From the IMG/VR virus record IMGVR_UViG_2526164602_000016: a stretch of DNA of 7,924 bases. One strand, written 5' to 3'. Source of the stretch: a virus (Duplodnaviria > Heunggongvirae > Uroviricota > Caudoviricetes). Positions within the stretch are counted from its first letter, which is position 1. Every line of letters starts with the position of its first letter. The notes beneath the pieces are model-generated. The model saw only the letters and a list, made by a program, of their open reading frames with translations. It did not search any database and was not told where the DNA came from. Below, one piece after another: positions 6,417-7,924 of this stretch. Position numbers and translations under genes: made by a program.

Positions 6417-7730
6417 ATGGCAGTAAAGATTTCAGGTGTACTGAAAGACGGCACAGGAAAACCGGTAGAGAACTGCACCATTCAACTGAAAGCCAGACGT
6501 AACAGCGCCACGGTGGTGGTGAACACGGTGGCCTCTGAAAATCCGGATGAAGCCGGTCGTTACAGCATGGACGTTGAGTACGGTCAGTACAGCGTCATTC
6601 TGTTGGTGGAAGGATTCCCGCCGTCACATGCCGGGACCATCACCGTGTATGAAGATTCTCAACCCGGTACGCTGAATGATTTTCTCGGTGCCATGTCGGA
6701 GGATGACGTCCGGCCGGAGGCACTGCGTCGTTTTGAACTGATGGTGGAAGAAGCGGCGCGTCACGCTGAGGAGGCGAAGAAGAATGCCGGAGAGGCGGAG
6801 ACGTCCGCGAGGAATGCCGGCATATCAGCCAGTCAGGCAGAAGAGAGCGCGGCAAATGCTGACACTTCAGCAGGGGATGCATTGGAGTCAGCCCGGCAGG
6901 CGGCAGAAAGTGCAGCCGCTGCAAAGCAGTCAGAGGATGCGTCCTCGTCCTCGGCTTCTGCGGCCGCTCAAAAAGCCAGTGAGTCATCACAAAGTGCAGC
7001 AGAAGCTGAATTGTCAAGAAAGACGGCAGAAAGTGCAGCCGGTAATGCAGCCAGGGATGCAACGACCGCAACAGAAAAAGCCCGGGAGTCAGCAGAAAGC
7101 GCACAGTCAGCGGAACAAAGCAGGATAGCGGCGGAAGAGGCCGTAAACCGAATCCCCACCGTGGTGGGGCCTCCCGGGCCAAAGGGGGAACCGGGGCCCG
7201 CGGGTCCTCAGGGGCCGAAGGGAGATAAAGGAGAGCGTGGAGACACCGGCCCGGCAGGGGCAACCGGCGAACGGGGACCGGCAGGTGATGCTGGTCCGGC
7301 AGGCCCGCAGGGGCCGAAAGGTGACAGGGGAGAGCGGGGAGAGACCGGTCTGACGGGAAATGCAGGTCCACAGGGTCCAAAGGGAGATACCGGTGCGGCA
7401 GGCCCGGCAGGCCCACAGGGACCGAAAGGAGAAACAGGTGCGGCTGGCCCGGTGGGGGCAACCGGACCTCAGGGACCGAAGGGCGACCCGGGGGAGACAC
7501 AAATCCGTTTTCGTCTGGGGCCGGCGAGCATTATTGAGACAAACAGCAATGGCTGGTTCCCGGATACAGATGGCGCACTCATCACCGGACTGACCTTTCT
7601 TGACCCCAAAGATGCCACACGGGTTCAGGGTTTTTTTCAGCATTTGCAGGTCAGGTTTGGTGACGGGCCGTGGCAGGATGTTAAGGGGCTGGATGAAGTG
7701 GGCAGTGATACAGGCAGAACAGGAGAATGA
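6417..7730 (+). CDS. stf: Side tail fibre (Stf-like) protein with an Ala/Ser/Glu-rich low-complexity region and a collagen-like Gly-X-Y domain
   Basis: The N-terminus [30 protein letters not shown]...[44 protein letters not shown] matches the lambda Stf N-terminus from memory. The track start at 6411 is a GTG; the ATG at 6417 aligns with lambda. About 36 Gly-X-Y triplets follow, then a 77-aa C-terminal segment. Stop TGA at 7728-7730. Confidence 0.8.
7167..7496 (+). repeat. Collagen-like Gly-X-Y triplet repeat coding region within the stf-like gene
   Basis: Translation [110 protein letters not shown]. The unit GPQGPKG[D/E] recurs five times, so the nucleotide sequence is degenerately repetitive and GC-rich. 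Confidence 0.85.
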
Positions 7731-7731
7731 C

Positions 7732-7924
7732 ATGAACATATTAAAAAAACTTATGCAGCGTCTGTGCGGTTGCGGAAAGCATGATGACCGTGAAAACGGG
7801 CAGTCACTTACAGCACAGCTGCGACTGGGACCGGCAGACATTCTGGAGTCCGATGAGAATGGTATTATCCCGGAGCAGGACAGGGTAATCACGCAGGTGG
7901 TGATACTGGATGCGGATAAAAAGC
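7732..7924 (+). CDS. Hypothetical protein, 3'-partial, possibly an alternative tail-fibre C-terminal module
   Basis: ATG at 7732 lies 1 nt after the stf-like stop and has an AGGAG Shine-Dalgarno sequence at 7721-7725. It is open to the window end (64 codons, MNILKKLMQRLCGCGKHDDRENGQSLTAQLRLGPADILESDENGIIPEQDRVITQVVILDADKK). Residues 30-64 resemble the stf-like segment [34 protein letters not shown]. It is absent from the ORF track because no stop falls inside the window. Confidence 0.5.
   Translation, partial: MNILKKLMQRLCGCGKHDDRENGQSLTAQLRLGPADILESDENGIIPEQDRVITQVVILDADKK

Follow-up and report, generated by a model that had tools for sequence, protein, structure and literature searches.

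EPclA (EHEC prophage collagen-like protein, architecture A) is defined by the domain series PfN, PCoil, Col and PfC. The copies of E. coli O157:H7 were tabulated as 437-aa proteins in which the PCoil has 116 aa and the collagen domain 111 aa, and they are more than 90% identical to each other. ECs2717 and ECs2941 of E. coli O157:H7 Sakai are examples of this class, and the copy in prophage Sp15 is ECs2941 in Table 2 of that study. Collagen lengths of 63, 78, 81, 111, 114 and 144 residues were also listed, and differences in PCoil length are multiples of seven (Ghosh et al. 2012, PMC3368898). As a recombinant protein, EPclA (ECs2717) forms a trimer with the shape of a hinged dumbbell that is 55–62 nm long. 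It contains a coiled coil, and its collagen part has the CD signature of a triple helix with a Tm of 42 C. PfC is a trimerisation domain that nucleates refolding of the triple helix, and rotary-shadowing EM revealed the hinge, which lies between PCoil and Col (PMC3368898).

Short-tailed Stx phages, among them 933W and Sp5, have fibres of the EPclB architecture (Ghosh et al. 2012, PMC3368898). In Sp5, an antibody against the EPclB-type fibre labels the tail end, and deletion of this fibre abolishes plaque formation and lysogenisation. The EPclB-type fibre of short-tailed phages was long assumed to bind BamA, which is now disputed. A cryo-EM preprint on phi24B (2026) speaks against BamA, as a lambda-like phage with closely related collagen and C-terminal sequences does not recognise it. 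In the long-tailed phage Ur-lambda, four trimeric fibres contribute twelve Stf N-terminal domains to a collar at the gpV/gpM junction, and these domains are joined to a trimeric coiled coil through 10-residue linkers (PMC12617516).

The gene described here lies in a 7,924-nt stretch of viral DNA (IMG/VR record IMGVR_UViG_2526164602_000016), which is called the window below. It is a real feature that was already known, namely a full-length, ordinary member of the published EPclA class. Its product has a PfN domain, a PCoil built of heptads, a single uninterrupted Col domain and PfC, and the gene is located among lambdoid tail genes. With a probability of roughly 0.88, it encodes the side (lateral) tail fibre of a long-tailed, lambda-like prophage of the EHEC type, in the form of a full-length EPclA.

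Genomic setting of the fibre gene

In lambda order, the window carries the end of L, the genes K, I, J and lom, then the fibre gene, and lastly the first part of a small ORF. This setting among lambdoid prophage tail genes is common to Stx phages and EHEC chromosomes. A 1.6-kb region is 97–98.6% identical in DNA to VT1-Sakai, phage 2851, many Stx1a- and Stx2a-converting phages and EHEC chromosomes. Where a genome contains related sequence, up to 16 places in it match. For the whole window, no complete E. coli genome matched better than 98%. The mechanical ORF list opens the fibre gene two codons earlier, at GTG 6411. The ATG in Table 1 was adopted because RefSeq annotations of 98%-identical relatives use it and give a gene of 1314 nt.

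Table 1. Positions of the fibre gene, its domains and neighbouring elements in the window
Feature	Position (nt)	Strand	Description
Second terminator-like hairpin	5704-5723		Upstream of lom
Terminator-like GC-rich hairpin and T run	6379..6400	+	Between lom and the fibre gene; 8 pairs (7 G-C) followed by TTTTTG
Side tail fibre gene, EPclA type	6417..7730	+	ATG 6417, stop TGA 7728-7730; 437 aa plus stop
PfN collar/attachment domain	6417..6695	+	aa 1-93; the PF08400 match reaches aa 133
PCoil, Ala/Ser/Glu-rich trimeric coiled-coil rod	6717..7151	+	aa 101-245, about 20 heptads
Junction IPTVV	7152..7166	+	aa 246-250, from coiled coil to collagen; read from sequence
Collagen triple-helix domain	7167..7499	+	aa 251-361, 37 uninterrupted Gly-X-Y triplets (111 aa), five GPQGPKG units
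Left copy of 9-nt direct repeat GCAGGCCCG (Gly-Pro-Ala)	7299..7307	+	Left edge of the 90-bp deletion in 27-triplet alleles
Tandem 9-nt repeat GCAGGCCCG GCAGGCCCA	7398..7415	+	Right edge of the 90-bp deletion
PfC distal knob	7500..7727	+	aa 362-437, 76 residues; PF06820 at aa 363-426, nt 7503-7694
PfC-only gene, start	7732..7924	+	Cut by the window end; 89 aa in relatives; AGGAG 6 nt before ATG; ATG 1 nt after the fibre stop

The hairpin between lom and the fibre gene presumably acts as a terminator. No sigma-70-like promoter was found near the fibre gene, which would fit its expression from an antiterminated late transcript. The two hairpins bracket lom, so that lom resembles an independently expressed insert inside the tail operon.

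The J gene, which encodes the central tail fibre, occupies positions 2210–5685 of the window. It is split into ORFs of 147 aa and 1011 aa by a 1-nt deletion near 2633, where the window reads CAGTTGAGCGT and the relatives read CAGTTGCAGCGT. In four related prophages, J is broken elsewhere, about 1.25 kb into the gene, and is annotated as 'frameshifted' or 'truncated'. Unless the deletion is a sequencing error, the window prophage may be defective.

In relatives, genes for type III effectors lie downstream of the pair formed by the fibre gene and the PfC-only ORF (loci L001 9828–11368, L083 12022–14261 and L085 3462–5810). The cargo in these relatives consists of tccP2 with an espV fragment, nleA with a DUF1076 gene, and a SopA-like gene. 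The window stops short of this position.

Domain architecture of the fibre protein

Three Pfam domains were matched in the protein. PF08400 (phage_tail_N, 'Prophage tail fibre N-terminal') covers residues 1–133 (E 8.7e-69; 230 bits, where the cut-off is 26.6), PF01391 (Collagen) was matched with E 3e-18, and PF06820 (Phage_fiber_C, described as a putative C-terminus of prophage tail fibres; PfC) was matched over its full profile (1–64 of 64, E 2e-36). The best PHROG matches of the protein are tail fibre families. Residues 1–93 are about 93% identical to residues 1–93 of lambda Stf (87/93, E 7e-54; PDB 9e7m, chain Ta).

The Ala/Ser/Glu-rich stretch extends over aa 114–245 (about nt 6756–7151) and contains 33% Ala, 17% Ser and 14% Glu. 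Ala positions in aa 101–245 have one sharp periodicity at 3.5 residues (z = 21.5, a value reached by 0 of 2000 shuffles), and the xxAxxAx heptad register is unbroken from the first to the last of these residues. Therefore, this 'spacer' is a rod of about 20 heptads. The IPTVV pentapeptide behind it is probably the hinge. The unbroken run of Gly-X-Y triplets far exceeds chance, and the five GPQGPKG-coding units compare with none in 200 shuffles. Judged from its sequence, the window protein itself would trimerise and form both a collagen triple helix and a coiled coil, as recombinant ECs2717 does.

Most of this layout had been described in the earlier note, which located the ORF and its parts correctly and proposed both the Stf-like N-terminal attachment domain and the Pfam search for collagen and tail-fibre domains that has now confirmed it. 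Its counts of 438 aa, about 36 triplets and 77 final residues become 437, 37 and 76. An Ala/Ser/Glu-rich region of about 130 residues was rightly placed, but its label of low-complexity spacer gives way to the coiled coil.

An AF2 monomer model of the last 88 residues, built from a 12-sequence alignment, was mostly beta and of low confidence (mean pLDDT 58, pTM 0.43). A fold search from this model was dropped because the model was too poor. Structure prediction failed likewise for the PfC domain in the phi24B cryo-EM preprint (2026). PfC may be derived from an Ig-like beta-sandwich. Its aa 21–63 (window 7560–7690) align with positions 8–48 of bacterial Ig-like Big_7 (PF17957) repeats from two distant matches (hhalign probability 89%, E 2.6e-6). 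PfC residues 7–32 also resemble the repeated 'G..QLVQT..GK.PALDGSLITG' motif of a 1402-aa protein.

Named protein matches of PfC are confined to E. coli, E. albertii and Citrobacter rodentium. An exhaustive representative search gave 44 matches, which are E. coli-type fragments apart from weak multi-repeat ones. The 'divergent' matches of the first protein search were rejected as distant homologues, as their alignment reveals contig-end fragments, frameshift products and chimeras. P0163, in which a collagen tract is fused to the PfC of the small ORF, was considered as a natural tip swap and set aside; its start lies 4 nt away from the end of its 3.3-kb contig, and it may be an assembly artefact. 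Database entries for PfC are mostly 'partial' contig-end proteins in clusters of hundreds of members.

Collagen length variation and selection

In 27 full-length relatives, the collagen domain has 37 triplets in 20 cases, 27 triplets in four, 38 in two and 36 in one, and 437 aa is the modal length. One 27-triplet allele also has a PCoil that is seven residues shorter. The multi-copy fibre gene seems to break short-read assemblies, and copy and triplet numbers from draft genomes are therefore unreliable. Comparison of triplet numbers agrees with the suggestion of the earlier note that this length may vary between strains. Slippage or recombination, which the note had proposed at the GPQGPKG units, is borne out as a process but not at these units, which are only 83–87% alike in DNA. 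The endpoints lie at the 9-nt GCAGGCCCG repeat next to them. Alleles with 36, 37 and 38 triplets carry one, two and three copies of the tandem 9-mer. The 10-triplet deletion corresponds exactly to nt 7308–7397, between the left 9-mer and the tandem pair. A plain single crossover between two GCAGGCCCG copies was rejected as its cause, since it predicts a loss of 99 nt, whereas the observed gap is 90 nt and three tandem copies are left.

Selection was estimated from 19 distinct 437-aa alleles of IMG/VR and GenBank loci. The dN/dS ratio is 0.18 overall, with 0.12 for PfN, 0.29 for PCoil, 0.09 for Col and 0.27 for PfC. Therefore, the fibre gene is maintained under purifying selection and is not decaying.

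Proposed fibre mechanism and the receptor

Three chains would form one fibre. Their N-terminal beta-domains (aa 1–93) would dock on the tail as in Ur-lambda, where twelve such domains from four trimers form the collar at the junction of tail tube and tip. A flexible linker would lead into the Ala-core trimeric coiled coil, whose 20 or so heptads would span roughly 15–20 nm. A short hinge would follow, and then the 111-residue collagen triple helix of about 30 nm. The small trimeric PfC knob would end the fibre and nucleate folding of the triple helix from the C-terminus. This knob would be the only candidate for a surface-binding tip, and it presumably binds a cell-surface receptor. The fibre would speed or broaden adsorption, and committed receptor contact would be made by the central J fibre. 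By analogy with Ur-lambda, the fibre is expected to attach to the window phage's own tail, and a role in adsorption is likewise expected. The frameshift in J counts against this reading, because the fibre copy may sit in a defective prophage and may never be assembled.

The siphophage phi330 (vB_EcoS_phi330, PV189401.1; L086 5118–6430) carries the fibre locus of the window at 97% identity. This phage is OmpC-dependent and BamA does not inhibit it; in the model of its authors, the J-like central fibre makes the OmpC contact. The fibre gene deposited for phi330 is annotated as two ORFs, with 1 nt missing at about codon 98. As phi330 forms plaques with this frameshifted gene, the fibre is dispensable on laboratory hosts (K-12), a further point against the proposed reading. 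This frameshift parallels the stf frameshift of laboratory lambda, in which Stf is likewise dispensable. Phages with these fibres spread genes for Shiga toxin and type III effectors, and the binding target of the fibres thus affects which strains are open to conversion.

The downstream PfC-only gene and alternative explanations

Full copies of the small ORF are found in relatives (L001 9433–9702, L082 11731–12000). Its 89-aa product consists of a 27-residue Cys-containing leader (MNILKKLMQRLCGCG...) and a PfC domain, which is 37% identical to the fibre PfC over 62 aa. The ORF is intact at 89 aa in most related loci examined, with a dN/dS of 0.06 in the PfC part. In one genome (L085), the fibre gene is followed by a 92-aa hybrid ORF (P0052, 2697–2975), the normal 89-aa ORF and the SopA-like effector gene. 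In P0052, the leader of the small ORF is joined to the C-terminus of the fibre PfC at the shared RLGPA.I.E motif, which points to recombination between the two PfC paralogues.

The fibre could be only a stalk, with the co-transcribed 89-aa protein (or another) as the true receptor-binding or tip component that caps the PfC knob or assembles with it. This is rather improbable, although it is the alternative that survives best. The small ORF starts directly behind the fibre gene with its own AGGAG, shares the PfC fold family, is conserved as described above, and travels with the collagen–PfC module into the EPclB-type locus L031. It also occupies the place that tfa has on the lambda map. On the other side, ORF68, its homologue in Sp5, is one of the genes listed as non-essential in that phage, and PfC trimerises alone, without the small protein. 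It is similarly doubtful that the 89-aa protein, which is strongly conserved and translationally linked to the fibre, works as a partner of the tip (as a factor in assembly, or as a distal cap by which receptor specificity is carried or shaped) and recognises, together with the PfC knob, an E. coli surface structure other than BamA. If this were true, a portable cassette of collagen, PfC and small ORF would set the first-contact specificity of both long- and short-tailed Stx phages.

It is very improbable that the protein is a bacterial collagen-like surface adhesin, comparable to Scl1/Scl2 or Lcl and carried as prophage cargo that serves the bacterium. NCBIfam adhesin models do match the Gly-X-Y region, many intact fibre copies lie in prophages with a broken J, and a bacterial role was left open by Ghosh et al. 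(PMC3368898). However, the matches to these equivalog models (Scl1/Scl2, Lcl) reach only 84, 82 and 69 bits, where the curated cut-offs are 500, 325 and 400, and they cover the Gly-X-Y repeat only. The N-terminus is the Stf collar domain and not a signal peptide or anchor, the gene lies in the tail operon after J and lom and behind a terminator, and the available evidence for EPclP expression is tied to phage induction (Ghosh et al., PMC3368898).

The least probable explanation, which is largely refuted, is that the gene descends from a longer lambda-type stf and is now truncated or decaying, without its distal receptor-binding part. The protein is far shorter than lambda Stf, as the earlier note held. 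It is also without the Pf2 repeats and gp37-like distal domain of Ur-lambda, and the neighbouring J is frameshifted, but its length is the modal one in relatives, a conserved Pfam domain that folds and trimerises stands at its end, the dN/dS is low and few related copies are disrupted.

Comparison with known systems

The reading as a full-length EPclA side tail fibre is set here against the systems that share parts with it. The Stf of lambda (Ur-lambda; PDB 9e7m, PMC12617516) has the same N-terminal collar domain, followed by a linker and a trimeric coiled coil, and its gene likewise lies downstream of J and lom. Lambda Stf goes on from there with a long proximal rod, then a hinge, then a distal coiled coil of gp37 type and a tip that binds OmpC (PMC12617516), and tfa is the next gene. 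In contrast, the window fibre has an Ala-zipper, a collagen triple helix and a 76-residue PfC end. No PF03406 (Pf2 repeats) or other distal fibre domain was found in it with Pfam, and the next gene is PfC-only and not tfa.

Scl1/Scl2 of Streptococcus pyogenes and Lcl of Legionella resemble the window fibre in having an unhydroxylated Gly-X-Y triple helix that is nucleated by a flanking trimerisation domain. Unlike these adhesins, the window fibre is without a signal peptide or cell-wall anchor, scores below the thresholds of their models and is found in a phage tail context.

The EPclB-type fibres (933W L0121, Sp5 ORF67/ECs1228 and phi24B gp61) have essentially the same distal module of collagen, PfC and 89-aa ORF. 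Over 743 nt, window positions 7182–7924 (collagen, PfC and downstream ORF) share 95.6% DNA identity with the distal part of an EPclB-type fibre gene that has two collagen domains (IMG/VR locus L031). EPclB differs in its N-terminal attachment domain, which is suited to a podovirus tail, in its two collagen domains split by a Pf2 repeat, and in its length of about 635–678 aa.

The closest system is EPclA itself. The window adds nothing beyond the published description of this class, and the family is present many times per EHEC genome. Architecture and dimensions are identical to those of the window protein, and the position in the prophage is likewise after J and lom. The fibre protein is 98.9% identical to H0004 of VT1-Sakai (prophage Sp15). 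It differs from this copy by five substitutions in 437 residues (P259Q, A280V, R402Q, F406L and Q408R) and otherwise in nothing of substance.
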